Shown: positions 9,696-32,383, numbered from the stretch's first letter. The stretch is DNA of 64,000 nucleotides from Chitinophagales bacterium (GCA_038227505.1 JBBRPX010000001.1:1067-65066), one strand, 5' to 3'. Translations and numbers: made by a program. Notes: generated by a model not told the origin, from the letters alone.

Positions 9696-10829
9696 TTATA
9701 AATTACCTCTTGCATCTTGTTCCCTTTCTAAAGCCTCAAACAAAGCTTTAAAATTTCCTTTCCCAAAACTTTTTGCTCCTTTGCGTTGTATAATTTCAAA
9801 AAACAAAGTTGGCCTATCCTGCAAGGGTTTGCTGAAAATTTGTAGCAAATAACCTTCCTCATCTTTATCTATCAATATCCCTAATTCACTTAAAGGTGCA
9901 AGGTCTTCATCTATTTTACCAACCCTATCCAACACATCAACATAATAACTAGGCGGTATTTTTAAAAACTCAACACCACGACTTTGTAAATCTGTTACCG
10001 TGGCAACTATATCGTTGGTTGCTATCGCAACATGTTGTACACCTTCGCCATTATAAAAATCCAGATATTCTTCCACCTGGCTTTTTTTCTTTCCTTCGGC
10101 AGGTTCATTAATAGGAAATTTTACAAAACCGTTTCCGTTGCTCATAACTTTACTCATGAGAGCAGAATATTCAGTTGAGATATCGCTATCATCAAAACTT
10201 AAAATATTTTTAAAGCCCATGACCTCTTCGTAAAATTTAACCCAAGGGTTCATTTGGTTCCAGCCAACATTTCCCACACAATGATCAACATATAATAACC
10301 CTGTTGATGAAGGATTGTAAACACTTTCCATTTTTCTAAAACCAGGCATAAAAATACCTTTGTAATTTTTTCTTTCAATAAACAGATGTACGGTTTCACC
10401 ATAGGTATGAATGCCACTAATAACAACTTCGCCGTTTTCGTCGTTCAATTTTTGTGGCCTCAAGTAACTTTTACCACCTCTGCTAGTAGTTTGCTCCCAA
10501 GCATCCTTTGCATCTTCCACCATTAAAGCCAATACTTTTACACCATCCCCATGTTTGCTTACATGTGTTGCTATTTCATGGTCTTCCCGCAAGGCAGTCG
10601 TTAATACAAAAGTCAATTTATTTTGCCGAATAACATAGCTAACTCTGTCCATTAATCCAGTTTCAGGCCCTGCGTAGGCCAAACTTTGAAACCCAAAAGC
10701 GGTTTTATAAAAATGAGCTGACTGCTTTGCGTTTCCCACATAAAATTCCACATAATCTGTACCCATTAAAGGCAAAAAATCTGCTGATGAGGAAGTATTA
10801 TTTTGATTTATTGTTGTCGTATTTTCCAT
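9696..10829 (-). CDS. hppD: 4-hydroxyphenylpyruvate dioxygenase
   Basis: DHCVGN, GVQHVA and FFEIIQRKGAKSFGKGNFKALFE motifs. Start taken as MENTT at 10829. Confidence 0.97.
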   Translation of the reverse strand: MENTTTINQNNTSSSADFLPLMGTDYVEFYVGNAKQSAHFYKTAFGFQSLAYAGPETGLMDRVSYVIRQNKLTFVLTTALREDHEIATHVSKHGDGVKVLALMVEDAKDAWEQTTSRGGKSYLRPQKLNDENGEVVISGIHTYGETVHLFIERKNYKGIFMPGFRKMESVYNPSSTGLLYVDHCVGNVGWNQMNPWVKFYEEVMGFKNILSFDDSDISTEYSALMSKVMSNGNGFVKFPINEPAEGKKKSQVEEYLDFYNGEGVQHVAIATNDIVATVTDLQSRGVEFLKIPPSYYVDVLDRVGKIDEDLAPLSELGILIDKDEEGYLLQIFSKPLQDRPTLFFEIIQRKGAKSFGKGNFKALFEALEREQDARGNL

Positions 10830-11135
10830 TTCACTTTTTTTACTGAGAAGAAACAGCATTATACCCAGCATTTACGCCATTGCACATTTTGTAGTCAACT
10901 CCATATTAAATTTTGTTTAAAATATTGCACCATATCCGATGCGTATGAGATTTTATTTTACACCATCCATAGCCAGCACTTCCATCAACAAATTATAGTT
11001 GCAGCGCTTATCAGTAAAAATTTTATGGGCGTAATCAGGCGTCATTCTTCACAAATTTAATATTTTATTACCTAAAGAACAATGCAAAATTCTATCACAG
11101 CAAGACTTTCGTGAAAATATAAGCCACATAAAAAT

Positions 11136-11165
11136 AAAAAAGAGACCTTAACAGGTCTCTTTTTT
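11136..11165 (-). terminator. Intrinsic terminator
   Basis: AAAAAAGAGACCT-TAAC-AGGTCTCTTTTTT just downstream of the minus-strand metalloprotease gene. Confidence 0.8.
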
Positions 11166-11184
11166 AAATAGTAAATAGATAATA

Positions 11185-13725
11185 TTATTTTTTAGGATCA
11201 AGGGCTTTCTCAATCCTTCTGCTCATTTCCTTCAAATGAATTCTTGTCATTTGATCAGTAGAACCAAGTGCAGCAGCATTTATTTCAGCTTTTAATGAGG
11301 TAAGGTGAGCACGTACAGAAGCCTGTACATCCACGTAATCATTATCTACCGGGGGTGCAAATCCACGACCAAGATTAAGACCCGGAGGTAGCACCACAGG
11401 CGGTGGTGGATTTAGTACTGTATTCATTTTATCAACATACATCTGTTGTAATTGTCTGCGGTAAACGTCTATTGGCTTGCGTGCGGCGAGTTCACTCCAA
11501 ATACCTCTTTTTACATCAGTCAACAATTCAGGAATACTGTAGGCATAATCATTACCCGGAAGTGTAGAAGCTTCTACCAAATGATTTAAAGTACCAGCTC
11601 TAAATAAACTACCTATAATTCCTTCCTGCAAATCTCCAACTACTTTCAAACCATTTTGGCCTATTTTAGCATAAACATCGTTGTTAAAAAGCCAATCAGG
11701 AGTTTTGAAAAGGTTTTCGTTTAAATAATTAACAGCTTCTTTTTGCTTTGCTTTTGATACAGCTTCAAAAACAACGCCCGGCTCTTCGGTTACTTTTGGT
11801 GTTTTCATAATTCCGCCAATTATCCTTAATACATGGTTGTTGTATCTGTTAAACTGGCTTGTTACTTCACCATACATCATCTCAAGATTAGCATAATCTT
11901 CGTTTGGAACTTTTGTCCAGTCAGTTAAGTTTGGAATTATTCTTTTCAAGTTTTTAATACCATACAAACTACCTTTTACTGCATCATCTCCAACCTGCTC
12001 TGAAAGGTTACGTGGATCATCTCTGTTAGATTCTCCATCTCCAAAAAACAGGCGCTTATTCTTCATATTTTCCATCACCCATTTATTCATGGCAGTTTTT
12101 TCTGCATCAGCACTTTTGTATTCATCAAATCTGCGATAACCCCAATTAATTGCCCATTCATCATAATCGCCTATTCTTGGAAAGATACCTTTAGGCCCAA
12201 TTTTATCTTCAGGTTGTGCAACATAATTAAAACGTGCATAGTCCATAATTGATGGTGTATGCCCATTTGCTTCTACCCACGCTTTGTCTCTCAATTTTTC
12301 AACCGGCACCGTTGATGATGATCCAAAATTATGTCTCAACCCAAGTGTGTGTCCAACTTCGTGAGAAGATACAAAACGGATCAGTTGACCCATCAACTCA
12401 TCATCGAAAATCATTTTTCTTGCACGAACATCATTTGGTGCTGCCTGTACAAAATACCAATTATGAATAAGCGACATCACATTATGATACCAATTTATAT
12501 GGCTCTCCATAATTTCTCCACTGCGTGGGTCAGCAATACTTGGTCCGCTTGCATTAGGTATGGTAGATGGTTTGTAAACAATGGCTGAGAAACGTGCGTC
12601 TTCTAAACTCCACTCTGGATTTTCTGCTTTTGTTGGTGCTCTTTTTGCAACGATGGCATTTTTAAAACCTGCTTTTTCGAAAGCAGTTTGCCAGTCATTT
12701 ACACCCTGTATTAAATATGGAATCCATTTTTCTGGCGTTGCAGGATCGATGTAGAACACTATTGGTTTTTTTGGCTCCACTAACTCCCCTCTTTTATATT
12801 TATCCATGTCCTCTTCCTTTGGTTCCAAGCGCCAGCGCTTTGCCAAAGAAATTCTCTTAACACCTTGTGGGTTTACATCAAAATCAGTAAAGCCAACAGT
12901 AAAATATCCTACCCTTGGATCGTAATATCGTGATTGCATAGGAGTTTGCGGCAACAACACCATTGAGCTATTTAGCTCCAATGTTACGTTCCCTGAATTA
13001 GCTGCGGCAGGAGAACTCGAGTAAGTTTTTACAGTAACAACTTCTACGTTTATCGGAAAAGTTTTTACATTTACTACGTAAGATTTATCTTTTTGTATTG
13101 AGCTAAGATTTGCTCTTTTTTTAATGTCATTGTCTAAAAACAAAACACTATTGTCTCCATTTACAAGGTCTGTAACATCAATTACTACTGCAGATGAATC
13201 TTTTGAATATGCTTTAATATCAAATACAAATTCAATGGGCTGTATGTTTGAATTGTTTACGGAAGAAAACATTGGAGCGGTAGAATCTTTCGTGTATTCT
13301 GCGAATGAGATGGTGCGCAAAAAGATGTTATCGTTTGGTCCTCTTTCAAATGATATTACATTTGAGCCGATATCATCACCTGCATAAGAAAGACCGGAAT
13401 TACGACCGGTTGTAGGTGCTTTCGAAATTCTGTTTACTACAAGAATTTCCCTTTTTAATAAATTTTTAGGGATTTCAAAGAAATATTTATCGTCCAAAAA
13501 ATGAACTTTAAACATGCCTAATGTTGTCTTTGCTTTTGCGGTAATAATTTCCGAGTAAGGTCTCGGACCTTTTGAAGGTGGTTTTAATTTTGCGTTTTTA
13601 GATGTGTCAGCAACAGCCATAGCTGTGTCGCCGGGCGATTTGCCACCAGGACTTTGAGCTAAAACACTTCCAGTACAAAAAAGTAGGGCAATAACAAGCA
13701 GCCGGTTTTTGGTAGTTAATCTCAT
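11185..13725 (-). CDS. Secreted zinc-dependent metalloprotease (DUF5117/DUF5118/DUF4953, EcxA-like)
   Basis: Signal peptide; HEVGHTLGLRH metzincin motif and SIMDY Met-turn. Confidence 0.9.
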   Translation of the reverse strand: MRLTTKNRLLVIALLFCTGSVLAQSPGGKSPGDTAMAVADTSKNAKLKPPSKGPRPYSEIITAKAKTTLGMFKVHFLDDKYFFEIPKNLLKREILVVNRISKAPTTGRNSGLSYAGDDIGSNVISFERGPNDNIFLRTISFAEYTKDSTAPMFSSVNNSNIQPIEFVFDIKAYSKDSSAVVIDVTDLVNGDNSVLFLDNDIKKRANLSSIQKDKSYVVNVKTFPINVEVVTVKTYSSSPAAANSGNVTLELNSSMVLLPQTPMQSRYYDPRVGYFTVGFTDFDVNPQGVKRISLAKRWRLEPKEEDMDKYKRGELVEPKKPIVFYIDPATPEKWIPYLIQGVNDWQTAFEKAGFKNAIVAKRAPTKAENPEWSLEDARFSAIVYKPSTIPNASGPSIADPRSGEIMESHINWYHNVMSLIHNWYFVQAAPNDVRARKMIFDDELMGQLIRFVSSHEVGHTLGLRHNFGSSSTVPVEKLRDKAWVEANGHTPSIMDYARFNYVAQPEDKIGPKGIFPRIGDYDEWAINWGYRRFDEYKSADAEKTAMNKWVMENMKNKRLFFGDGESNRDDPRNLSEQVGDDAVKGSLYGIKNLKRIIPNLTDWTKVPNEDYANLEMMYGEVTSQFNRYNNHVLRIIGGIMKTPKVTEEPGVVFEAVSKAKQKEAVNYLNENLFKTPDWLFNNDVYAKIGQNGLKVVGDLQEGIIGSLFRAGTLNHLVEASTLPGNDYAYSIPELLTDVKRGIWSELAARKPIDVYRRQLQQMYVDKMNTVLNPPPPVVLPPGLNLGRGFAPPVDNDYVDVQASVRAHLTSLKAEINAAALGSTDQMTRIHLKEMSRRIEKALDPKK

Positions 13726-13838: not shown

Positions 13839-14969
13839 ATGATAAAAGCTGGAATTTTGGGTGGCGGGCAATTAGGCAGAATGTTGTTGCAAGCTGCAGC
13901 AAATTACCCTGTCGAGACTTATATTTTAGAGAATGATTCCACATGCCCATCTGCTCATCTTTGCCACCATTTTACTAAGGGAGATATTACAAACTTTGAC
14001 GATGTTTACAATTTTGGAAAAGGACTTGATGTTGTTACCATAGAAATTGAAAATGTAAATGAAGATGCATTACAGCAATTAGAAAATGAGGGAATAAAAA
14101 TTTTTCCAAATGTAGCTGCATTAAAAATTATAAAAAGTAAGATTTTACAAAAAGAATTTTACAAAGCAATTGAAGTTCCGTCCGGCGAATTCGTTGTTAC
14201 AAACTCAAAAACTGACCTTCATCAACACAAACATTTTTTACCTGCTGTGCACAAACTTGCAAAGGGTGGTTATGACGGCAAGGGGGTTGAATTGATGCAT
14301 ACAGAAGTAGATCTTGGAAAAGGTTTTGATGCGCCAGCTGTGTTAGAAAAAATGGTGGACATAAAAAAGGAACTCTCCATGATTATTGCAGTAAGCCAAA
14401 CCGGTGAGACTGTAATTTATGAACCGGTGGATATGGTGGTAGATCAACGACTAAATTTATTGAGTTACCAGATTTGCCCTGCTATAATACCTGAAAAAAT
14501 AATGTGGAAAGCTGAGGCAGTAGCTTTAAAAGTGGTAAAGGAATTAAAAAGTGCAGGCATTTTTGCGGTAGAACTTTTCACTGATCAGAATGATAATATT
14601 TTTGTAAATGAAACTGCGCCACGTGTACATAACAGTGGCCATCACAGCATTGAAGCATGCTACAGCAGTCAGTTTGATATGTTATGGCGGGTAATGCTTG
14701 GTTATCCCCTGGGCAATACAGATCATATTTTACCTGCCGCCATCGTGAACCTTGTTGGAGAAGAAAATCATACAGGCGATGCTGTATATGAAGGTTTAAA
14801 AGAAGTACTTGCAATGGATAATGTTTTCGTCCACATTTACGGAAAAAAAACAACCAGGCCCGGCCGAAAAATGGGACATGTTACCATTTTAAGCAATGAA
14901 CCACAAGAATTGTTGCATAAGGCCAATCAAATAAAACAGTTATTGAAAGTGGTTGCAAAGAATGCTTAA
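13839..14969 (+). CDS. purK: N5-carboxyaminoimidazole ribonucleotide synthase
   Basis: GILGGGQLGRM, GYDGKG, NETAPRVHNSGH and GRKMGHVT motifs. Confidence 0.97.
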   Translation: MIKAGILGGGQLGRMLLQAAANYPVETYILENDSTCPSAHLCHHFTKGDITNFDDVYNFGKGLDVVTIEIENVNEDALQQLENEGIKIFPNVAALKIIKSKILQKEFYKAIEVPSGEFVVTNSKTDLHQHKHFLPAVHKLAKGGYDGKGVELMHTEVDLGKGFDAPAVLEKMVDIKKELSMIIAVSQTGETVIYEPVDMVVDQRLNLLSYQICPAIIPEKIMWKAEAVALKVVKELKSAGIFAVELFTDQNDNIFVNETAPRVHNSGHHSIEACYSSQFDMLWRVMLGYPLGNTDHILPAAIVNLVGEENHTGDAVYEGLKEVLAMDNVFVHIYGKKTTRPGRKMGHVTILSNEPQELLHKANQIKQLLKVVAKNA

Positions 14970-15083
14970 TTAATTAGGCTTGACATGTCATCATTATTTC
15001 ATCCTTACCATAACTATTTTTTTGTTGAAGGTTCTCGTAAAAATATTCCTCCTCACTAATTTTTCTACTTGTTTAAATCTTAA

Positions 15084-15647
15084 ATGATGAGTGCAAATCT
15101 TTACCAGCTTTTCAATAATATTTTCCCAATATCTATTGAGTTACAAAATGAGTTAACAAATTTATTAAAAGAAGAGAAAGTAGCTAAGAAGGAATTTATT
15201 TTAAAGGAAGGTGAGGTATGCAAAAACATATACTTTATAGAAAGTGGTTATTTTAAATCTTTTCACTTGCGTGACGGAAAAGAGATTGTACAATGGTTTA
15301 TGAAAACCAACGATGTAATAATTTCTGTAAATAGTTTTTATAACCAGGTGCTCAGTTATGAGTTTATTCAGGCTACGGAAGATTCGATAGTACATTTTAT
15401 CAGTTATGAAAATCTTGAGTATCTCTACAAAAATTTTATGGAGCTAAATTTTATAGGGAGGCATTTAACGCAACATTACTATGCCTTAAGTGAGCAAAGG
15501 TTGTTTAGTATGCGAAAGCAAAAAGCAGAAGACCGCTATCTTTTTTTATTAAATACGCATCCTGAAATTATCCAAAACGCCTCACGCACCGATATCGCAT
15601 CCTACCTTGGTATATCTTTAGAAACATTGAGCAGAATTAGAAAATAA
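15084..15647 (+). CDS. Crp/Fnr family transcriptional regulator
   Basis: cNMP-binding-like domain (KEGEVCKNIYFIESG) and C-terminal HTH IASYLGISLETLSRIR. Confidence 0.92.
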   Translation: MMSANLYQLFNNIFPISIELQNELTNLLKEEKVAKKEFILKEGEVCKNIYFIESGYFKSFHLRDGKEIVQWFMKTNDVIISVNSFYNQVLSYEFIQATEDSIVHFISYENLEYLYKNFMELNFIGRHLTQHYYALSEQRLFSMRKQKAEDRYLFLLNTHPEIIQNASRTDIASYLGISLETLSRIRK

Positions 15648-15651
15648 AATT

Positions 15652-15669
15652 ATTTGACAAATGTCAAAT
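15652..15669. promoter_or_regulatory. FNR-like palindromic box
   Basis: ATTTGAC-AAAT-GTCAAAT (core TTGAC-N4-GTCAA) between the Crp stop and the lipoprotein start. Confidence 0.65.
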
Positions 15670-15716
15670 TTTATATCAACAACGATTTGTTATTTTGGTC
15701 ACTAAAATTGACAAAT

Positions 15717-17279
15717 ATGAAAAAAGGATTTTTATTTTATTTGCTTACCATTTTATTAATTGTATTTATTTTAAATTCCTGTAAAAAAGAAATTGATAAT
15801 ATTGACCAGCCTCGTTCAATACAAAACACACAATTAATTGAAAACTTCTTAAAAGTACCTGCTACAGCTCCATCTGTTGTTAAAAGAATTGCAGAAGAAT
15901 TTAGAAACCAAGATAAGATTCGTCCCGGATTTATTGCTGAATTTGCATCTAAAAACGGTTCTGTCCTTTGGGGACAAGCAGAAATTTCATTTCGTGATAA
16001 AACTATGTTTAGAAATGGCTTTGCAGCAGAAGGTGATACTACCGTACTGCTCCCCTTTAGTACAATAGCAGATAGTTCGTTGACAGGGTTTATTCAAGCT
16101 GAAGTTTACGACTCGGTAAAACTGTTCATGTACAATGCTAATGATTATGGCACTTTACCTTCAAGCCAAGATTATAATGATACTGTATTTACACAACAAA
16201 AATTCGCCTTAGTAATGATGCAGCTTCAAAAAGAAGTGACAGGAGATAGTCTTTTTGCTATGACAGATACCACACTTTTTCAGCAAAGTGGACAAGCTGT
16301 TACAAAGGTAAAAATAAACGAAGTAAATAAAGCAATGGCAACAATAGTAACACCTTCATGGTGCTTTGCTGTTACCTTTCAAATCATGCCTTTTGTTGAT
16401 ATCAATATTTGGCTTTGCTTTCCTTTTGGCGATGGTTCAAACCTCCCCAATTATCCTCCCTATAATCATGGCAGTGGTGGTACCGGTAGTGGAACTGGCG
16501 GTACAGGTAGTCCAACTGGTGATACTGGCGGTTCACCAACGGGTGATCCTTGCATGGGAAGGCAGATAGTCGATGGCAATTTACCTTCAGGTTGTGGTGG
16601 AGGACCTGTTGGATGGGAGCCAATTGAAGCCAACGAACCTGTTACATTAGTTGACAGCAATGCGGGTGATCCACCAGTCGACATAGTAAAAATCTTTAAT
16701 TGCTTTAATTTATTACCTGACGCAGGAGCTACATATTCCGTTAAACTTTGTGTTGATATTCCAGTTAATGGAAATCCAAATTGGCCAATTGCAAGTGTGG
16801 GAGATGTAGGTCATACTTTTTTAACTGTCACAAAAACAAATGGTAGTAACTCTATAACTTAATCTTTTGGGTTTTATCCCACATCAATTTTAAATTTAAC
16901 TGGTTTATACGTTAATAGTAAAATGGTCAACAACGGTGCACTTTTAAATGAGCATGAATTTAATGCTAAAATAATAATGAATCTTACTCAAGCACAATTC
17001 GATTTACTCAAACAGAATGCAATTTCAAAATCTTTAAAACGGTATTCCTTAATATATAATAATTGTACAGACTATGCATTAGACTTATTTAATTCAGTAA
17101 GAGCAACACCAATCGCTTCCGAACCAATTATAGTACCTATATACAATGTTATTTATTCTAGTCCTCCAGGTTTATACAATACTTTGAATACGCTAAAATC
17201 TCAAGGAGGAAGTGAAAGTCAAAATATAGAAGTTAATGTATTATTCAAACCAATGATAAGCCATGGAGAATGCCCTTAA
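15717..17279 (+). pseudogene. Lipoprotein with Gly/Thr/Pro linker and C-terminal His...Asn-Cys papain-like putative toxin domain, interrupted by an in-frame TAA
   Basis: Lipobox ILNS-C22. ORFs 15654-16862 and 16923-17279 share one frame, separated only by TAA at 16860-16862 (…NSIT*SFGFYP…). GHTF (His codon 16812) and YNNCTDY (Cys codon 17064). Function is inferred. Confidence 0.7.
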
Positions 17280-17679
17280 TGTAAAACAAAAAATCAAATA
17301 TTTATTGTATATCATTTTATCTATTACTATATCCAATACTTGGCTTTTTAAAAACGTTACCCAATTGGATGATAATTATTACAGATACTCTAATACATCT
17401 GGATTAATAACTGTTAAGGAATATCCAGTAGATAGAATTTATATAAATAATGTTTTTAAATTAGAAAAAGGGTATTGGGCATTGTATCAAAAACAGTTTA
17501 CTTCAAATGCAAATGATACGATCATTTTTCGTTTATACAAAAAGTCTCCATTTAAATTTTGGAGATGGTATGAATACATGTACAACTGGAGATATGACAT
17601 GCCATACAAGGATTGGGATGAAATAAAAAAGAACCGTCCTGTAAACTTTGTTAGAAATAAAAGTTTTCAAGCATTTTAA
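17263..17679 (+). CDS. Small membrane/secreted protein, array member A (putative immunity)
   Basis: N-terminal hydrophobic helix; family motif YYRYSN..G…DTIIFRLY…PFKFWRW…PYKDWDEI…QAF; start overlaps the upstream gene by 17 nt. Confidence 0.75.
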   Translation: MENALNVKQKIKYLLYIILSITISNTWLFKNVTQLDDNYYRYSNTSGLITVKEYPVDRIYINNVFKLEKGYWALYQKQFTSNANDTIIFRLYKKSPFKFWRWYEYMYNWRYDMPYKDWDEIKKNRPVNFVRNKSFQAF

Positions 17680-17733
17680 AATTAATCCGCTGTAAACATT
17701 TTTAATTTTTTCCAACGCAGAAGTAAAAGATTT

Positions 17734-18096
17734 ATGAAATTTATAATATTATTTGTATTGGTTGGTTTAGTGTCTAATATTTCACCGGTTCATGAAATAT
17801 TCTCTCTGTTTGGCGATAGTGATCATTTTAAATATTCAAATGCTAACGGTGAATTCACATTTGTTGAATTCAAGGGAAGGGATACTGTTATGCTTAAAAA
17901 AGTATTTAATCTATATTCAGAAAAAACCAATGATACAATTTTATATCGATTGTTTTCAAAAAATCCTTTAGCCTTCTGGCGAATAAAAAAATACTTTACT
18001 GACCCAAAATATAATTTGCCTTATAAAAACTGGGATGAAATAAAAAGTAAAAGAACGTATGAACTTAAAAATTCCAACAACTGGCAGGACTTTTAA
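17734..18096 (+). CDS. Array member B (putative immunity)
   Basis: Signal-like N-terminus; HFKYSN.NG…DTILYRLF…FWR…PYKNWDEI…QDF. Confidence 0.75.
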   Translation: MKFIILFVLVGLVSNISPVHEIFSLFGDSDHFKYSNANGEFTFVEFKGRDTVMLKKVFNLYSEKTNDTILYRLFSKNPLAFWRIKKYFTDPKYNLPYKNWDEIKSKRTYELKNSNNWQDF

Positions 18097-18481
18097 AAAT
18101 AGTTTTATCCTATTTCTTTTTTTGATGACTATTACAAATATACCTGGGATCAAAGAAATTTCCGGGGCTAATAAAGCGTATTATAGATATAGTAATTACA
18201 ATGGCACAATCACTTCATGGGAAATTTTATCCCAAGGCAGGGAGATTGATAAGGAATATGTAAAAACAATAAGCCAAAATGAGCAATTTAAAAAAATGCA
18301 TCCAGATACTAAGGATACTACAATTTATAGGCTATTTGAGATAAATCCATTTCATTTTTGGCGATGGGGCGAATATATTTTTAATTGGCGTTATAGGCTT
18401 CCTTATAAAAATTGGAAAGAAATAAAAAAAAGAAGAGGTTATGGTGAATTAAAGTATGCGAACAGTTTTCAAGAGTTTTAG
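18059..18481 (+). CDS. Array member C (putative immunity)
   Basis: YYRYSNYNG…DTTIYRLF…FWRW…PYKNWKEI…QEF; start uncertain, overlaps member B. Confidence 0.7.
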   Translation: MNLKIPTTGRTFKNSFILFLFLMTITNIPGIKEISGANKAYYRYSNYNGTITSWEILSQGREIDKEYVKTISQNEQFKKMHPDTKDTTIYRLFEINPFHFWRWGEYIFNWRYRLPYKNWKEIKKRRGYGELKYANSFQEF

Positions 18482-18896
18482 TATTATGAAACTGAACTTC
18501 AATATCTGCAGATATGTTATTTTATTTATCACAATAATTTTGATATCCAACACTTGGCTCATTAAAAATGTTACACAACTGGATGATAATTATTACAGAT
18601 ATTCTAATATAAGTGGTTTGAGAACAGTCAAAGAATACCCAATAGATAGAAGCTATATTCATATAAATATAATGAAGAGGCACAAAGAAGACTGGGATGA
18701 GTATGCTAGAACATTTCCTAATAATTCAAATGATACAATTATATATCGTTTATATAAAAAATCACCTTTTAAATTTTGGAGATGGTATGAATATATGTAC
18801 AACTGGCGATATGAGATGCCCTACAAAGATTGGGATGAAATAAAAAAGAACCGTCCTGTAAATTTTGTTAGAAATAAAAGATACCAGGCATTTTAA
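18456..18896 (+). CDS. Array member A' (paralog of 17263-17679)
   Basis: 107/113 nt identical to A over 18768-18880 vs 17551-17663; start at 18456 or 18486. Confidence 0.75.
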   Translation: MRTVFKSFSIMKLNFNICRYVILFITIILISNTWLIKNVTQLDDNYYRYSNISGLRTVKEYPIDRSYIHINIMKRHKEDWDEYARTFPNNSNDTIIYRLYKKSPFKFWRWYEYMYNWRYEMPYKDWDEIKKNRPVNFVRNKRYQAF

Positions 18897-18951
18897 AAAG
18901 TTAATCCGCTTGAAAGATTTTTATATTTTGAAAACCAGCACTAAGAGATGT

Positions 18952-19311
18952 ATGAAATTTATATTTTTTTTTGTTTTGATTGTTCTAGGATCTAATATTT
19001 CGCCTGTTCATGAAATTTTTTCTCTTTTTGGCGATAGTAATCATTTTAAATATTCAAATGATAACGGTGAATTCACATTTGTTGAATTCAAGGGAAGGGA
19101 TACTGCAATGATGAACAGATGGCTTACGGCATATAAGCAACAAAGTAAGGATACTGTTTTATATAGATTATTTTCTAAAAACCCATTCGCTTTTTGGCGT
19201 ATAAAAAGTTATTTTATTGATCCCAAATATAATTTGCCATATAAAAATTGGGAAGAAATTGAAAAGACAAGAGGTACGATTACAGATTTGGCAAGATTTC
19301 AAAATTTTTAA
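18952..19311 (+). CDS. Array member B' (paralog of 17734-18096)
   Basis: MKFIFFFV start at 18952 aligns with B; SNISPVHEIFSLFGDS and GEFTFVEFKGRDT are shared. Confidence 0.75.
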   Translation: MKFIFFFVLIVLGSNISPVHEIFSLFGDSNHFKYSNDNGEFTFVEFKGRDTAMMNRWLTAYKQQSKDTVLYRLFSKNPFAFWRIKSYFIDPKYNLPYKNWEEIEKTRGTITDLARFQNF

Positions 19312-19359
19312 GGACTATAAAAATTTCAAAGCTTTTTTTAAAAATTCATCAATTTTAAT

Positions 19360-19390
19360 AAAACACTTTTCTAATTGGGAAAGTGTTTTT
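19360..19390 (+). terminator. Probable intrinsic terminator closing the array
   Basis: AAAACACTTT(T)C…GAAAGTGTTTT followed by a T-run. Confidence 0.6.
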
Positions 19391-19548
19391 TGTTTTATAA
19401 GTTTGTTCAATAAATGCAGAATTATCTTTAAGCAAAAAATTTGACGGACTCTTCTAAAAAAAATAATACTTTGTTATACTTTTATTTTTGACAACAATAT
19501 TTTGTTCTCGTATTTACTATTTCTTGTCATCACCATTAATAAACCAAC

Positions 19549-21072
19549 ATGAATTTCTTACAAACATTAAATATATCAGCAACTAACAAGGGCGTTTCTA
19601 CCGGCCTGCAATGGGTAAAATCAAAAGGAGAAAAAATTTCTTCTTACTCCCCCGTTGACGCAGTTTTAATTGGAACTGTAACCGGAGCAGATAAACAGGC
19701 TTACGATACCGTCGTTGAAAAAGCGCAGCAAGCATTTGCAGAATGGCGCTTGTGGCCTGCACCAAAACGTGGTGAAATTGTAAGACTAGTTGGAATGGAA
19801 CTAAGAAAATTTAAAACAGAACTTGGTACACTTGTGAGTTATGAAATGGGCAAAAGCCTGCAGGAAGGTATGGGAGAAGTACAGGAGATGATTGACATCT
19901 GTGATTTTGCAGTTGGCCTTTCTCGCCAATTACACGGTACCACAATGCACAGCGAAAGACCAGGACATAGAATGTACGATCAGTATCATCCGCTCGGAAT
20001 TGTTGGTATTATTTCAGCATTTAATTTCCCTGTAGCTGTATGGGCTTGGAACAGCATGTTGGCTTGGGTTTGCGGAGATGTAACCGTTTGGAAGCCTAGT
20101 GAAAAAACGCCTTTATGCGGCGTTGCCTGTCAGCAAATAATACAAAGTGTATTTAAGAAAAACAATGTACCCGAAGGTGTTTGCGGACTCATAAGTGGTG
20201 GTAGAAATGTTGGTGAATGGATGAGTGCAGATAAAAGAGTTCCACTCGTTAGTGCAACAGGCAGTACAAGAATGGGCAAAGCCGTGGGAGCCGTTGTTGG
20301 CGAAAGGCTCGGCAGAAGTTTATTGGAATTAGGCGGTAACAATGCCATTATTATTTCCAGCGAAGCTGATATAAATATTGCCATAACCGCAGCAGTTTTT
20401 GGGGCTGTAGGTACTGCAGGGCAAAGATGCACAACAACCCGCAGATTGATCATCCACGAAAAAATATACAATAAGTTTAAAGAGCGTTTGGTAAACGCCT
20501 ACAGTCAATTAAAAATTGGAAATCCTTTAAATGAAAAAATGCACGTCGGGCCATTGATTGACAAAGATGCTGTTACCAATTACTTAAACGCAGTAGAAAA
20601 ATGCAAAGAACAAGGCGGTAATTTTATTGTTGAACCCGGTGTTTTAAAAGGGAAAGCTTTTGAAAGCGGTTGTTATGTAAAGCCTTGCGTTGCAGAAGCA
20701 AAAAACAGTTTCGAAATTGTACAGCATGAAACCTTTGCGCCAATTCTTTATATAATGAAATACAAAACGATGGATGAAGCAATTGCCATGCAGAATGGCG
20801 TGCCACAAGGGCTCTCATCATCTATCATCACAAATAATTTAAGGGAGGCTGAATTGTTTTTATCGCAGGCGGGAAGTGATTGTGGAATTGCCAATGTAAA
20901 TATTGGAACGTCGGGAGCCGAAATTGGTGGTGCGTTTGGTGGCGAAAAAGAAACCGGCGGTGGCCGTGAAAGTGGCAGTGATGCTTGGAAAGTTTACATG
21001 CGCAGACAAACAAACACGATTAATTACACGGATAAATTGCCGCTAGCACAAGGGATAAGATTTGATTTGTGA
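19549..21072 (+). CDS. Aldehyde dehydrogenase family 7 (AmaB / piperideine-6-carboxylate dehydrogenase-like)
   Basis: SAFNFPVAVW, LELGGNN, GQRCTT catalytic Cys and GGEKETGGGRESGS motifs. Confidence 0.9.
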   Translation: MNFLQTLNISATNKGVSTGLQWVKSKGEKISSYSPVDAVLIGTVTGADKQAYDTVVEKAQQAFAEWRLWPAPKRGEIVRLVGMELRKFKTELGTLVSYEMGKSLQEGMGEVQEMIDICDFAVGLSRQLHGTTMHSERPGHRMYDQYHPLGIVGIISAFNFPVAVWAWNSMLAWVCGDVTVWKPSEKTPLCGVACQQIIQSVFKKNNVPEGVCGLISGGRNVGEWMSADKRVPLVSATGSTRMGKAVGAVVGERLGRSLLELGGNNAIIISSEADINIAITAAVFGAVGTAGQRCTTTRRLIIHEKIYNKFKERLVNAYSQLKIGNPLNEKMHVGPLIDKDAVTNYLNAVEKCKEQGGNFIVEPGVLKGKAFESGCYVKPCVAEAKNSFEIVQHETFAPILYIMKYKTMDEAIAMQNGVPQGLSSSIITNNLREAELFLSQAGSDCGIANVNIGTSGAEIGGAFGGEKETGGGRESGSDAWKVYMRRQTNTINYTDKLPLAQGIRFDL

Positions 21073-28153: not shown

Positions 28154-30937
28154 ATGATGGAAAATTTGATTTATGTGGTACCTGCAATGGGCATTGTAGG
28201 CTTGTTGTACACTTTTGTAAAGTATGCTTGGGTATCTAAACAAGATGCAGGTAACGAACGAATGAAAGAAATAAGCACTTACATAGCAGAAGGTGCTATG
28301 GCTTTTTTAAAGGCTGAGTATAAAATTCTGACTTACTTCGTCATCATTGGTGCATTGTTGTTGGGTGTTATGGGCTATACAAATTCAAATAGCCATTGGA
28401 GTATTGCTGTAGCATTTATATTAGGTGCTTTTTTTAGTGCATTGGCCGGTTTTGTGGGTATGAAGATTGCCACTAAAGCCAACGTGCGTACTGCGCAGGC
28501 GGCTCGTACAAGTTTAAGCAAAGCTTTATCTGTTTCGTTTACCGGTGGTAGCGTAATGGGTATGGGTGTGGCAGGTTTGGCAGTACTTGGTTTAGGTGGA
28601 TTATACATCATTTTAAAAATGGTTTTTGCTCCGGGTGCAGCGGTTAATAGTGTAGAGATGGAGCGTACCATAGAAATATTAACGGGCTTTTCTTTAGGTG
28701 CAGAGTCTATTGCATTGTTTGCTAGAGTTGGTGGTGGTATTTACACAAAAGCGGCAGATGTGGGTGCGGATCTTGTAGGAAAAGTTGAAGCAGGTATACC
28801 GGAAGATGATCCTCGTAACCCTGCAACAATTGCTGATAATGTTGGAGACAACGTAGGTGATGTGGCAGGAATGGGTGCAGATTTATTTGGTAGTTATGTG
28901 GCAACGGTTTTGGCCACGATGGTTTTGGGTAGAGAAGTTTTAGGAACTGATGGAAACCCTGTCATTGATATGTTTGGTGGATTTTCTCCTATTTTATTAC
29001 CCATGATGATAGCAGCAATGGGAATTATATTTTCTATTATTGGTACATTTTTCGTTCGTATAAGTGAGACTGCAGGTTTGAGTACGCACAAAGTTCAAAA
29101 TGCTTTGAATATGGGTAACTGGGGTAGCATGGTTTTAACGGCAATTGGTTGTTACTTTTTAGTGCAATTTTTAATGCCGGATGTATCGATGACATTACGC
29201 AATGTTCCCTTCACAAAAAACCAGGTATTTGGTGCCATTATGGTGGGGCTTGCAGTAGGTGCATTAATGAGTATTATAACAGAATATTACACAGCAATGG
29301 GTAAGCGTCCGGTGATGAGTATCATTCGCCAGAGCGCAACAGGACACGCAACAAATATTATTGGTGGATTAGCAGTTGGTATGGAAAGTACTTTGCTTCC
29401 CATATTGGTTTTAGCTGCGGGTATTTACGGTTCATATTATTGTGCAGGGTTGTACGGTGTTGCAATAGCTGCAGCAGGTATGATGGCTACAACAGCTATG
29501 CAGTTGGCTATTGATGCATTTGGACCAATTGCAGATAATGCGGGCGGTATTGCTGAAATGAGTGAACTACCAGCTGATGTACGTGAGAAAACAGATATTT
29601 TAGATGCCGTTGGTAATACGACTGCAGCTAGTGGTAAAGGATTTGCGATTGCTTCTGCGGCATTAACGGCGTTGGCATTGTTTGCAGCTTTTGTTGGTAT
29701 TGCAAAAATTGATGGTATTGATATTTATCATGCTGATGTGCTTGCAGGTTTGTTTGTGGGTGGCATGATTCCGTTTATATTTTCATCGTTGGCTATTAAA
29801 GCTGTAGGTGAAGCTGCGATGGCAATGGTGGAAGAAGTTCGTCGCCAGTTCCGTACCATTCCAGGTATTATGGAAGGTACAGGAAAACCGGAGTATGATA
29901 AGTGTGTGGCTATTTCTACTGAAGCGTCTTTAAAGAAGATGATGTTGCCCGGTGCAATTGCTATTTTATCGCCACTTATTATTGGTTTCGTTTTTGGTCC
30001 TGAAGTGTTGGGTGGTTTTCTTGCAGGTGCTACAGTTTGTGGTGTGTTGATGGGAATATTTCAAAACAACGCAGGTGGTGCATGGGATAACGCTAAAAAA
30101 TCTTTTGAAAAAGGTGTTGATATAAATGGTACGATGTATTACAAAAAATCAGAACCACACAAGGCTTCTGTAACGGGTGATACAGTTGGTGATCCTTTTA
30201 AAGATACATCTGGTCCATCAATGAATATCTTAATTAAATTGATGAGTATTGTTAGCTTGGTGATAGCTCCTACCCTAGCAAAATTACATCATGATAAAAT
30301 AGAATTGAGAAGGAAAGAAACTCTGGATATGCTAATGAAAAAAACTGCTGTGACTGTTGCCGTTCCGCTTGAAGAAAAAGGATTGGTGAGAGACGCTAAT
30401 ACTATAGAAGGAAATACTGCCACTGGTGTTGTTGCCGGCACAGTAAATGCAGCAGGCGATTACGTTTACAATACTGGGGCCGTAAAAGTTATCGACTTGC
30501 CAAACGACGCAAGAATATCTTTAGGTGTGGGGAGTGATTTATATAAAATGCACGAAAAGATTAAGGTTAATGATGCTACGTTGTTAGATAAAAATTCATG
30601 GTTTACTTTAGAAGATCTTTACTTTCAGAGTGGAAGTAACAAATTAAAAGCTTCATCTGAAACAGGATTAAAAAATTTATATGAGATTGCTACCTGTTAC
30701 AACCTAAACGTAAAACTTGGTGGTTATACAGATAATAGTGGTGACAGCATAAAAAATGTTACTTTAAGCCAGCAACGGGCAGAAACTGCAAAAGCGTCTT
30801 TAGTAAAAATGGGTTTAGCTGCAGAAAGAATTGAAACGGAAGGCTACGGACCAATGCACCCAAAATGTGTTACTGATAATTCCGCAGAGTGTTTGGCTCA
30901 AAACAGAAGAATTGATGTAAGGATTACAAAGAAATAA
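28154..30937 (+). CDS. hppA: K+-dependent membrane-bound ion-translocating pyrophosphatase fused to a C-terminal OmpA-like domain
   Basis: [41 protein letters not shown] and [10 protein letters not shown] motifs; C-terminal GYTDNSG…N..LSQQRA…NRRIDV OmpA motif. Confidence 0.93.
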
Positions 30938-31086: not shown

Positions 31087-31635
31087 CTACCCTATAACTT
31101 TTTTCGCCTGCTTAACATGCCTTTCAATATGATACACATAAAAACGAAGTGTATCGCCTAAGCGTAATTTTATAAATTTAGATAGTGAGATTGCCGTTTT
31201 TATTTTAGTAAGATCGGTAGTTGAAGCCTGTTGTAGTATGGATTGCAGCAGTTGTTCCTGTTTTAAAAATCGATCGAGCGTGGTAATCGACAATGTAGAA
31301 TTTACCGGATTTTTATCTTTCGGAGATTTCATTTTTTTTATTTTTCCGTTTTTTATTTTTATTAAACCGACAAAATAATCTCCCATCATACCTGGTTTAA
31401 AAACCTTAGAATCCTCTAGGTTTATCGAATCTAATAATTGCTTTTGCATTTCAGGTAAATAAAAATCACCGTAAAGGTTCAGGTGTTCTACACATTCTAA
31501 TATACTCCATTGCTCAGCGGTCTTTTTAAAGTTTAATTTATCGATGTCTAAATTTTTAAATTCTGTTACAGCAATAGTTGCTTGCTCCGTTAAACTTAAC
31601 AGTTCGGCAATGAGTTGTTCTTTGTTAATTATCAT
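31087..31635 (-). CDS. DinB family protein
   Basis: QWSILECVEHLNLY and HIERHVKQA motifs. Confidence 0.85.
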   Translation of the reverse strand: MIINKEQLIAELLSLTEQATIAVTEFKNLDIDKLNFKKTAEQWSILECVEHLNLYGDFYLPEMQKQLLDSINLEDSKVFKPGMMGDYFVGLIKIKNGKIKKMKSPKDKNPVNSTLSITTLDRFLKQEQLLQSILQQASTTDLTKIKTAISLSKFIKLRLGDTLRFYVYHIERHVKQAKKVIG

Positions 31636-31680: not shown

Positions 31681-31694
31681 TTGATCCAAATCAA
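31681..31694. promoter_or_regulatory. FNR consensus box
   Basis: TTGAT-CCAA-ATCAA is an exact FNR consensus, overlapping the Crp stop codon and upstream of the DinB gene. Confidence 0.65.
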
Positions 31695-32228
31695 GATTTA
31701 CGTATTCGGCTAAGTGTTTCAGGTTTCATTCTAAGATAAGATGCAATGTATTTTAAAGGGATTTCTTGAAACAGATTAGGACTTGTAGCCAATGCCCTTT
31801 TCAGTCTTTCGATAGGTGAGGTAATGAGTAGATCTATTTCTCGATCTGTTTGTTGAGTTACCAAATTTTCTATCAAATATATATTGTTTTAAGCTATCGA
31901 TGCTTTCATGCAGCATTCTTTGAAGCTGCTCTTTCGAAAATCAACTTAACCTTGGCTTTTCTTATTGCTTCTATAAAAAAATCAGAGGGCGCCTGCTTAA
32001 TAAACGATGATAAAGAATTGATGAAAGAATCTTTATATCCCAATCGAATTACATGCTCTTCAAATTCATCAAATAAAAAATCCTTACTGCACCGGATTAT
32101 ACCCAATAAAGATTTTTCTCTATTTCCCCTTCTTTAATTAAAAAGTCATCTTTTGGAATGGTTCTAATTTCACCGATTTCGGTTAAAGAATCAATTAACT
32201 TATTAATAAACGGGAGTTCGTTTGACAT
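31691..32228 (-). pseudogene. Crp/Fnr family regulator pseudogene
   Basis: ATG 32228 gives MSNELPF…KEGEIEKNLYWV then TAA (32097-32099); the remainder is in other frames (…DEFEEHVIRLGY…; …IASYLRMKPETLSRIRKS), so it has a nonsense mutation plus at least two frameshifts. Confidence 0.85.
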
Positions 32229-32383
32229 GGTGATTATAAAAATACTGATTGTACTTCTTTTGGTAGAACCTACAGTGCTTCTTAAAAAACTACATTTTAA
32301 TATTTATAAAATTGACTAAATGCAATAATTTTTGAAACTTACAATTTCCTTTACGCTAATCATTTTCTAAAATATCTTTGCGA

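Follow-up and report, generated by a model that had tools for sequence, protein, structure and literature searches.

A candidate lipoprotein-borne polymorphic toxin cassette with a membrane-anchored immunity-like array and a Crp/Fnr-type regulator in a Chitinophagales bacterium

We have analysed a 64,000-nucleotide stretch of DNA from a Chitinophagales bacterium (GCA_038227505.1, JBBRPX010000001.1:1067-65066), called the window here, and within it a cassette at positions 15,084 to 19,390 that consists of a gene for a Crp/Fnr-family regulator, a gene for a lipoprotein with an enzyme-like C-terminal domain and five small paralogous genes. In our judgement this is probably a Crp/Fnr-gated, lipoprotein-borne polymorphic toxin with an acyl-targeting tip of the TseH/Tox-Act1/DUF4105 kind and a membrane-anchored immunity array, present in the window as a toxin-null allele. 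It would be a chromosomal toxin-immunity cassette of the Bacteroidota with no need for a type VI secretion system (T6SS), contact-dependent inhibition (CDI) or Rhs carrier. The Crp/Fnr protein would bind a TTGAC-N4-GTCAA box just past its own gene and control the downstream operon, whose first gene would yield a Sec/Lol-sorted lipoprotein built of a lipid anchor, a scaffold domain that runs into a flexible linker rich in Gly, and a C-terminal toxin that can be exchanged. By analogy, the toxin may act from the periplasmic side on membrane phospholipids or lipoproteins, whose fatty-acyl chains it would cleave or transfer, reaching its target through surface exposure, vesicles or lipoprotein exchange. 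Translational coupling makes the first small gene, A, the likely source of the cognate immunity protein, and the other paralogs, gained by tandem duplication, may protect against related toxins of neighbours. The CAA to TAA truncation in the window strain would remove the toxin and leave the immunity in place. The enzyme class and the logic of toxin-immunity pairs are already established; in the literature searched, we found no description of the lipoprotein carrier, the immunity families or the coupling to a regulator.

The gene order crp, lipoprotein, small membrane gene(s) recurs at dozens of loci in Chitinophagales, Sphingobacteriales and Flavobacteriales. A profile of the small proteins returned about 70 relatives, all of them without a name, from Chitinophagales, Pedobacter and one Flavobacteriaceae genome. 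A genome survey, limited to one genome per species, yielded 32 loci found through the small family alone, and the six-frame open reading frames (ORFs) of these loci were searched with the small-family profile, a profile of the C-terminal domain and the sequence of the regulator. One or more small genes lie directly downstream of a toxin-domain ORF, often overlapping it, at about 19 of the 32, and at 13, all within those ~19, the gene directly upstream of that ORF is a regulator ortholog (E=1e-38 to 1e-60). Culturable carriers include Ferruginibacter yonginensis CECT 8289 (L007) and a Pedobacter species. Small genes without a toxin are found at 13 of the 32 loci, and the arrays hold one to five copies. 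Three toxin homologs, picked for divergence or long contigs, each stand in the order cNMP_binding gene, lipoprotein, small gene, and a crp gene lies directly upstream of the toxin gene at all of the loci L033-L036. Another 108 family loci came from metagenome contigs scanned with a sequence pattern, 54 of them with enough upstream flank, and here the regulator lies upstream at 36 of the 54 and a downstream membrane family follows the toxin gene at 87 of the 108. The small family was thus found beside such lipoproteins both in the genomes (~19/32 loci) and in the metagenomes (43/87 loci), a linkage that the initial annotation had proposed to look for.

The lipoproteins are modular in both directions. 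The C-terminal domain is found on at least two unrelated N-terminal domains. Conversely, a profile of the N-terminal 'type 1' scaffold domain, which spans residues 23-250 of the window protein (15783-16466, plus strand), matches 32 of the 244 collected proteins and also ORFs at loci L005, L006, L011 and L023 that end in other domains: DUF6973 (E=5e-21), a HEVAH metallopeptidase-like domain (HExxH, zincin-like) and two unknown ones. These alternative-tip lipoproteins (L011:7762-9339 and 10637-12565; L023:7795-9339 and 10331-12262; L005:6840-8204; L006:4267-5649) share the lipobox, the scaffold and the Gly-rich linker, and other small genes follow each of them. Ahead of every alternative tip stand the junction GW-x-P-(I/V)-x-x-(E/D) and a conserved pair of cysteines in the linker (DPC… GCGGG), and both L011 and L023 have an orphan small-family gene between two alternative-tip genes. 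Such a modular design of N- and C-terminal parts is a defining trait of polymorphic toxins (PMC3482391). The swaps documented at the C-terminus are few and come from a small sample. Many of the alternative-tip proteins end in Cys-(Asn/Pro/Gln).

What lies downstream varies with the toxin. Among the 87 metagenome loci with a downstream membrane family, it is the small family at 43, a family with four transmembrane (TM) helices at 39 and one with three at 5. The four-TM proteins are of about 145 residues, carry the motifs HP…ISGE…GGFY…LPHG…H…NDK…YN…TF and follow a toxin subclade marked by the motif …QQNIGFY (39 loci, for example L042, L052, L084 and L093); the three-TM proteins, of 105-115 residues, lie downstream of a few toxin genes. 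When each toxin domain was set beside its nearest relative below 80% identity, the two shared the same downstream family in 85 of 93 cases, and such co-variation is the pattern expected of cognate toxin-immunity pairs. With the C-terminal swaps, the co-variation, the orphans and the arrays, the layout of effector, coupled immunity gene and orphan paralogs that had been recognised in the window as that of a polymorphic toxin finds support in the wider family. Two multi-TM proteins, at L036:5161-5640 and L015:11058-11543, are alike, yet are not matched by the four-TM profile. At L035:6355-9422 the cassette (homolog P0018) adjoins conjugative-transposon genes (DUF4134, DUF4133, TraG-like) and a Vsr/DNA-methylase pair, neighbours that hint at mobility of the cassette.

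In the window, five small paralogs stand in the order A-B-C-D-E at 17263-19311, all on the plus strand. Gene A (17263-17679), the putative cognate immunity gene, encodes a protein of 138 amino acids (family profile E=2.8e-38) with a hydrophobic segment at residues 11-29 and an isoelectric point (pI) of 9.6; B (17734-18096) encodes one of 120 amino acids (family profile E=3e-51). Paralog alignment and the family profile place C at 18059-18481, with 140 amino acids from the ATG at 18059; the gene caller's ATG at 18125 (P0030, 118 amino acids) would drop the hydrophobic segment. The same evidence places D (18456-18896), whose product of 146 amino acids is 72% identical to A. E (18952-19311) encodes 119 amino acids from the ATG at 18952 (P0031), in an ORF that opens at a TTG at 18865, and is a close copy of B. 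The five have 26 invariant columns and 31-72% identity, and with family-profile matches of E=1e-38 to 1e-51 their resemblance is no product of chance. D-E arose as a copy of A-B in a recent tandem duplication whose unit is about 1.2 kb long (79-88% identity at a period of 1214-1218 nt). Every paralog has one N-terminal hydrophobic segment followed by a basic (pI 9.2-9.6), aromatic-rich domain of about 100 residues, and the family motifs are Y-R-Y-S-N…G…T and D…Y-R-L-F…N-P…F-W-R…Y…L-P-Y…W. A net positive charge precedes the hydrophobic segment in A, C and D, and the predicted orientation leaves the N-terminus in the cytoplasm and exposes the domain to the periplasm. Gene A overlaps the end of the lipoprotein frame by 17 nt (17263-17279), an arrangement of translational coupling. 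No model in Pfam, NCBIfam or PADLOC matches any of the five. The initial annotation had described five paralogs of ~120-145 residues, each with an N-terminal hydrophobic segment and the first overlapping the lipoprotein stop, in a family that it did not recognise, and in all of this it was right.

The lipoprotein is encoded in one frame of 520 codons (15717-17279, plus strand), with a single in-frame TAA at 16860-16862. At this place all intact homologs read (I/V)-T-Q-S-F-G-F-Y-P and the window reads I-T-stop-S-F-G-F-Y-P; the homolog alignment and metagenome contigs alike identify the change as CAA to TAA in the codon of a conserved Gln. Logan contigs from two independent metagenomes (runs X1 and X2, the second from 2019) were compared with the window over 14900-19600. 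Position 16860 is T in the X1 contigs and C in X2, and otherwise X1 and X2 are the same over 4.7 kb. At six other positions (16170, 16468, 18260, 18268, 18561 and 18941) the two runs agree with each other and not with the window, so the window comes from a third, very close source. Since X1 carries TAA and the near-identical X2 carries CAA, the stop is a genuine and recent nonsense allele, not a sequencing slip, and it coexists with the intact allele in strains that are ~99.9% identical. The truncation falls after the strand that bears the catalytic His and ahead of the catalytic Cys, and everything downstream is lost. The cell probably makes no toxin and keeps its immunity, which would make this a toxin-null allele with the array retained.

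A broken toxin gene beside intact immunity genes is the usual fate of toxin-immunity loci. The toxin gene is broken beside intact small genes at L004, L005, L009, L012, L021 and L026 as well as in the window. At L021 (Chitinophagales metagenome-assembled genome JBBQLL010000008.1, 5872-5874) a TAA occupies the identical Gln codon of a homolog ~45% identical to that of the window, and at L026 there is a frameshift in a T run 4-5 codons downstream of that Gln codon. A recurrent nonsense change at the CAA codon is possible, as is coincidence, and the two independent stops at one codon, in the window and in L021, are a curiosity. Programmed read-through or recoding at the TAA as a feature of the family was rejected, the ~110 metagenome family loci all having CAA; a scan of metagenome contigs for the motif around this codon, allowing CAA or TAA, gave three matches with TAA, none of them related to the family, and no contig encoding the window's truncated protein is on record. 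The premature stop, the AT-richness of the region and the several homologous loci that are broken too would also suit the view that the islet is a decaying, non-functional remnant whose ORFs persist by chance. This we regard as very improbable: neither the regulator gene nor any of the five small genes is broken, all of them match their family profiles at E=1e-38 or better, a near-identical strain carries an intact toxin allele and the cassette is conserved across three orders.

The interrupted domain itself (16674-17279, plus strand) was identified by profiles and a fold model as permuted NlpC/P60-like, with resemblance to TseH and DUF4105. Its catalytic motifs in the window are GHTF at residues 365-368, with the His366 codon at 16812-16814, and NNCTDYA at residues 448-454, with Asn449-Cys450 at 17061-17066. 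What does not vary in the family is a Cys close to the start (FNCF), together with G-H, K, G-x-Y-P, N-C and the penultimate Cys, and the invariant His precedes the invariant Asn-Cys by 84-85 residues in 25 of 25 homologs. An AlphaFold2 model of the domain, built on that of an intact homolog 48% identical to the window, has a mean predicted local distance difference test score (pLDDT) of 89.4 and a predicted template modelling score (pTM) of 0.89; it puts the His as the first residue of strand 47-56 and the Cys as the first of helix 132-143, a placement on which the full-length model agrees. In a Foldseek search of the Protein Data Bank (PDB) with the domain model, TseH of Vibrio cholerae (6v98) matched with E=4e-5, probability 1.00 and 207 aligned columns and human CLN5 (6r99) with E=6.6e-3 and probability 0.99, and beyond these two no match fell below E=0.1. 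The full-length model gave no significant match to the same database, probably because its low-confidence linker degraded the search, and profile searches against PDB sequences, full-length and domain-only, returned noise only.

Sequence profiles point in a similar direction. Of 16 family members, 4 match Pfam Lnb_N (PF13387, formerly DUF4105), at best with E=6e-6; against its gathering threshold of 22.2 bits, the full-length relatives P0005 (22.7) and P0014 (23.5) score above and P0013 and P0017 below. Peptidase_C97 (PPPDE) matches 5 of the 16 around the N-C motif, all below its cut-off, and DUF6695, the family of TseH, matches none of the 16 even at E<=10, so that the relation to TseH, judged from the model, is structural only. 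On the His-then-Asn-Cys order, the TseH and CLN5 fold matches and the Lnb_N scores we place the domain among the permuted NlpC/P60 enzymes, in the lipid-acting group that also holds the Tox-Act1 phospholipase. The initial annotation had read the His-before-Cys order as the mark of this permuted class and had suggested a fold search; the invariant order, the His on a strand and the Cys at a helix start, and a confidently modelled fold with TseH and CLN5 as its only significant PDB matches all agree with that reading. An exhaustive profile search found 1988 representative clusters (at 50% identity) with E<=1e-3, and among the 150 best matches listed the domain is always C-terminal, in proteins of 208-608 amino acids; a tblastn search of a plasmid collection with the domain found nothing. 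The likely substrate, by analogy, is the acyl chains of membrane lipids or lipoproteins and not peptidoglycan. An activity as peptidoglycan amidase seems less likely, because lipids are what the permuted enzymes characterised so far attack, at acyl-ester or amide bonds.

The nearest functional precedent is Tox-Act1, described in PMC12994826 as a periplasm-acting phospholipase toxin of the T6SS encoded on Salmonella pathogenicity island 6, neutralised by the membrane protein Imm-Act1; TseH is credited there with phospholipase activity on liposomes. Tox-Act1 is like the window domain in being a permuted NlpC/P60 enzyme, His before Cys, at the C-terminus of a carrier, and in having its immunity protein, a membrane protein for a toxin acting in the periplasm, encoded immediately downstream. 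Its homologs in table S3A share the weak Pfam signature of our family, being labelled DUF4105/Lnb_N, Peptidase_C97 or nothing. The vehicles differ: Tox-Act1 as described there rides on T6SS (PAAR, Rhs) or type V secretion filaments, whereas the window toxin would ride on a Sec-exported lipoprotein whose scaffold is lineage-specific. Two TM helices are ascribed to Imm-Act1 in that account, in contrast to the one anchor and basic ~100-residue domain of the small family and the four or three TM helices encoded beside sister subclades, and a Crp/Fnr regulator sets the window cassette apart from Tox-Act1. TseH (6v98, Pfam DUF6695) is the best and only strong structural match, likewise permuted papain-like and antibacterial, but it is 15% identical with a template modelling (TM) score of ~0.45, is delivered by a T6SS and has no lipid anchor. 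CLN5 and PPPDE/DeSI (Peptidase_C97) share the His-then-Asn-Cys order; they are eukaryotic enzymes, and all the sequence matches to them are below threshold.

At the head of the cassette, 15084-15647 (plus strand) encodes a Crp/Fnr-family transcription regulator of 187 amino acids, with a cNMP_binding domain (E=3.9e-10; 40 bits against the Pfam cut-off of 27.5). HTH_Crp_2 (E=8e-4) and Crp (E=1e-3) match below their cut-offs, yet at the C-terminal position expected of the helix-turn-helix, and the score of the NCBIfam Fnr subfamily (E=6e-11) is far below its cut-off, so the regulator is not an FNR ortholog. The FNR-type box TTGACAAATGTCAA at 15654-15667 (TTGAC-N4-GTCAA, with the spacing of FNR boxes) is the core of a perfect 18-nt palindrome at 15652-15669 and lies 6 nt past the crp stop and 50 nt ahead of the lipoprotein ATG. 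Both the Crp/Fnr gene and the FNR-like box of the initial annotation are thus present. By itself the box is unremarkable: TTGAY-N4-RTCAA occurs twice in the 64-kb window against 0.56 expected, and 13 of 100 shuffles reach two, which is not significant. Across homologous junctions, counting within 200 nt around the regulator stop codon, an exact TTGAY-N4-RTCAA stands at the crp stop in 25 of 61, where the density elsewhere in the same loci predicts ~0.3; 25 is a lower bound, as one-mismatch variants (GTGAC…) occur in L013 and L032 and exact boxes in L012 and L028 were missed. The box would be the operator of the adjacent regulator, controlling the downstream operon. A scan for sigma-70 promoters found sites no commoner than in shuffled sequence, with a consensus that is not valid for Bacteroidota. 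In the TseH (DUF6695) clade, a locus of Bacteroidetes, RFGW01000078.1 3941-5565, has a Crp/Fnr gene directly upstream of the toxin-like gene (S4, PMC12994826), and the pairing of regulator and toxin may extend beyond the family studied here; we found no mention of Crp in the main-text passages of that paper that were consulted.

The only other exact TTGAY-N4-RTCAA box of the window, TTGATCCAAATCAA at 31681-31694, sits between an unannotated ORF of 182 amino acids (31087-31635, minus strand) and a short ORF (32100-32303, minus strand) that weakly resembles the regulator (E=5e-4). The region may be a second Crp/Fnr-type module.

A cyclic-nucleotide-binding domain in the regulator and a predicted membrane-damaging activity raise another explanation, in which the weapon is turned on the producer itself or on a non-bacterial target: autolysis, abortive infection, vesicle production or an anti-grazer function, triggered by a signal that the cNMP-binding regulator senses, with the small proteins restraining the producer's own toxin. 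Lipobox-anchored effectors against eukaryotic hosts do exist in Bacteroidota (Amoebophilus APD1/APD2; PMC3482391). We nevertheless think such a role quite improbable, given that no PADLOC defence model matches any component, that no cyclase or phage-sensing gene is seen beside the three cassettes with Pfam-annotated neighbours, and that paralogous protectors and orphans fit defence against the toxins of neighbours better than restraint of a single self-toxin. An anti-phage defence system was rejected for want of a PADLOC match.

The translation of the lipoprotein gene begins with a signal peptide and lipobox (M1-C22, ...ILNS-C; 15717-15782, plus strand), followed by KKEIDNID, and the scaffold leads from residue 251 into a Gly/Ser/Thr/Pro-rich linker with two Cys (16467-16673, plus strand), which includes the junction motif GWEPIE at 16611-16628. 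Lipobox, Gly-rich linker and GHTF-bearing C-terminal domain are therefore all found in the translated frame, as in the 520-residue lipoprotein that had been reconstructed at the outset. No Pfam model matches the scaffold domains, and when the N-terminal domain of the window was used by itself to look for homologs, nothing came back but the protein it was taken from. The Bacteroidota surface-export signal, as experimentally defined, is C-X-K-(D/E)2, in which the second acidic residue mattered: MucG has KKEVEEE, and a shortened KKEVE was exported poorly (PMC5080379). After the lipidated Cys, our family has K, R or Q at +2, and in 78 homologs with a recognisable lipobox there is Lys at +3 in 74, Asp or Glu at +4 in 45 and rarely an acidic residue at +5; the window, C-K-K-E-I-D-N-I-D, has K at +3, E at +4 and Ile at +5. 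The resemblance to the export signal that was first pointed out consequently holds for the Lys at +3 and the acidic +4 of a MucG-like sequence and fails for the second acidic residue, which is usually absent. Exposure of the lipoprotein at the surface or on vesicles is possible on this evidence. The initial annotation saw no T6SS, CDI or Rhs genes in the window; such components are absent from its ten largest ORFs, and none was seen at the homologous loci inspected. The toxin lipoprotein has no C-terminal domain of the type IX secretion system (T9SS). The ten largest ORFs are ordinary chromosomal genes, and one of them encodes a T9SS cargo: a protein of 1762 amino acids (38389-43674, minus strand) with IgGFc_binding, PKD and CHU_C domains, the last being the type IX secretion signal from which it follows that the organism has a T9SS.

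Lipoprotein toxins that use no injection machine are known. SitA (PMC5562445) resembles the window cassette in its lipobox anchor, conserved N-terminal part, polymorphic C-terminal toxin and downstream immunity gene, and differs in that there is no sequence relationship, the toxin domains tested are nucleases acting in the cytoplasm, delivery needs outer-membrane exchange by TraA/B, SitI is cytoplasmic and the SitA cassettes have no Crp/Fnr regulator. The same principle of a signal peptide, a lineage-specific N-domain and variable C-terminal effectors is found in MafB-N, Microscilla-N and Amoebophilus APD1/APD2 (Zhang et al., 2012; PMC3482391), of which APD1/2 carry a lipobox as the window toxin does. 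The scaffold domains of the window belong to different families from these, and the catalogue of that paper lists the canonical Tox-NlpC/P60 (Cys before His) and does not include the permuted type. Within the scheme of Zhang and colleagues, the window toxin falls into the Sec-dependent class with a lineage-specific N-domain.

The closest family by sequence is Lnb/DUF4105, the lipoprotein N-acyltransferase of Bacteroides, with an Asn-His-Cys triad (PMC11573676). It shares with our domain the conserved His and the N-C-T motif, and its chemistry is that of a Cys acyl-enzyme on lipids in the Bacteroidota periplasm. In contrast to the soluble C-terminal module of a patchy polymorphic cassette, Lnb is a housekeeping protein of the inner membrane with five TM helices and no immunity partner. 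That this closest Pfam family is physiological lends weight to the main rival explanation, a physiological lipid-remodelling operon: a housekeeping or stress module in which a Crp/Fnr-controlled Lnb-like acyl-hydrolase or acyltransferase of the outer membrane works on the cell's own lipids or lipoproteins, with the small inner-membrane proteins as its partners or regulators. A dedicated regulator with a conserved operator is typical of metabolic or stress operons, and the lack of secretion or delivery genes nearby and the conservation of the C-terminal domain across ~2000 clusters would be equally at home in such an operon. The unrelated C-terminal domains on the same scaffold do not suit it, nor does the way in which three downstream families alternate in step with the toxin subclade; the tandem expansion of the small genes, their orphans and the many loci at which the enzyme gene has decayed and the small genes next to it have not are as hard to square with it. 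The AT-rich islet, the one cassette beside conjugative-transposon genes and the patchy presence among genomes also count against it, and an enzyme that was needed would not segregate as a null allele between near-identical strains. C-termini that are modular, downstream families that co-vary, the occurrence of arrays and orphans and a null allele that segregates are our reasons for considering a physiological operon unlikely.

Several points weigh against a polymorphic toxin none the less. We found no published experiment on a member of this family; its toxicity, immunity and substrate are all argued by analogy, and the window's copy of the toxin is non-functional. No Pfam threshold is reached by the sequence of the window itself, and the read-through protein has no Lnb_N match. 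The structural match to TseH is moderate (TM score 0.43-0.46, root mean square deviation 8 Å), and the position 16-17 residues after the His, Glu81 in TseH and Asn66 in Lnb, is taken by Gln, Lys or Arg and then a variable residue. Across its many clusters the C-terminal domain is well conserved, and classical displacement of the toxin tip is documented in few loci only. A dedicated transcription factor with its own operator is unusual at polymorphic toxin loci and fits a physiological enzyme too. Hydropathy and charge are the sole grounds for the predicted topology of the small proteins, no means of delivery is apparent, and the N-terminus of the lipoprotein meets the known surface-export signal only in part.

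More tentatively, the cassette might represent a widespread toxin platform, free of secretion machines, in Bacteroidota of soil, freshwater and sludge: exchangeable toxins on Lol-sorted lipoproteins, set behind a Gly-rich linker and a GW-x-P-I junction, gating of the Crp/Fnr type that has co-evolved with the cassette, an acyl-attacking tip and at least three unrelated immunity families. This broader proposal is, to our minds, possible and rather less than probable; if it is true, the toxins would reach competitors via the cell surface, outer-membrane vesicles or lipoprotein exchange. Lipid-targeting permuted NlpC/P60 toxins were first characterised directly in 2026, as enterobacterial T6SS cargo, and the cassette suggests that a related enzyme class rides a different vehicle, a lipoprotein, in environmental Bacteroidota and brings with it previously unannotated candidate immunity families. 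A Crp/Fnr-type regulator of its own, with a conserved operator, offers a handle on when bacteria express such a toxin. The TAA and CAA alleles in near-identical strains offer a natural comparison in which offence has been lost and defence retained. Some 2000 clusters of 'hypothetical proteins', and the membrane families downstream of them, could gain a provisional functional label.

The whole cassette fits into a 4.4-kb plus-strand stretch between purK (13839-14969; above the NCBIfam cut-off) and a gene for an aldehyde dehydrogenase (19549-21072; L-piperidine-6-carboxylate dehydrogenase, 823 bits against an NCBIfam cut-off of 730). GC content is 0.24-0.31 across ~16800-19600 and 0.28-0.33 across the crp gene, against 0.38-0.44 in the flanks, so the AT-rich islet between these two genes is seen in the composition. 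The run closes with the terminator-like structure that had been noticed at first, a hairpin at 19360-19389 (plus strand; 13-bp stem, 4-nt loop) with a T run to 19399; since the stem is AT-rich, with 3 G-C pairs, we infer with caution that it ends the operon. The cassette at L033 adjoins an aldehyde dehydrogenase gene, like that of the window. Elsewhere in the window, an ORF of 927 amino acids (28154-30934) carries a full-length H+-translocating pyrophosphatase (Pfam H_PPase) and, at its C-terminus, an OmpA-family domain; it is unusual for a polytopic pump of the inner membrane to be fused to a module that binds peptidoglycan.

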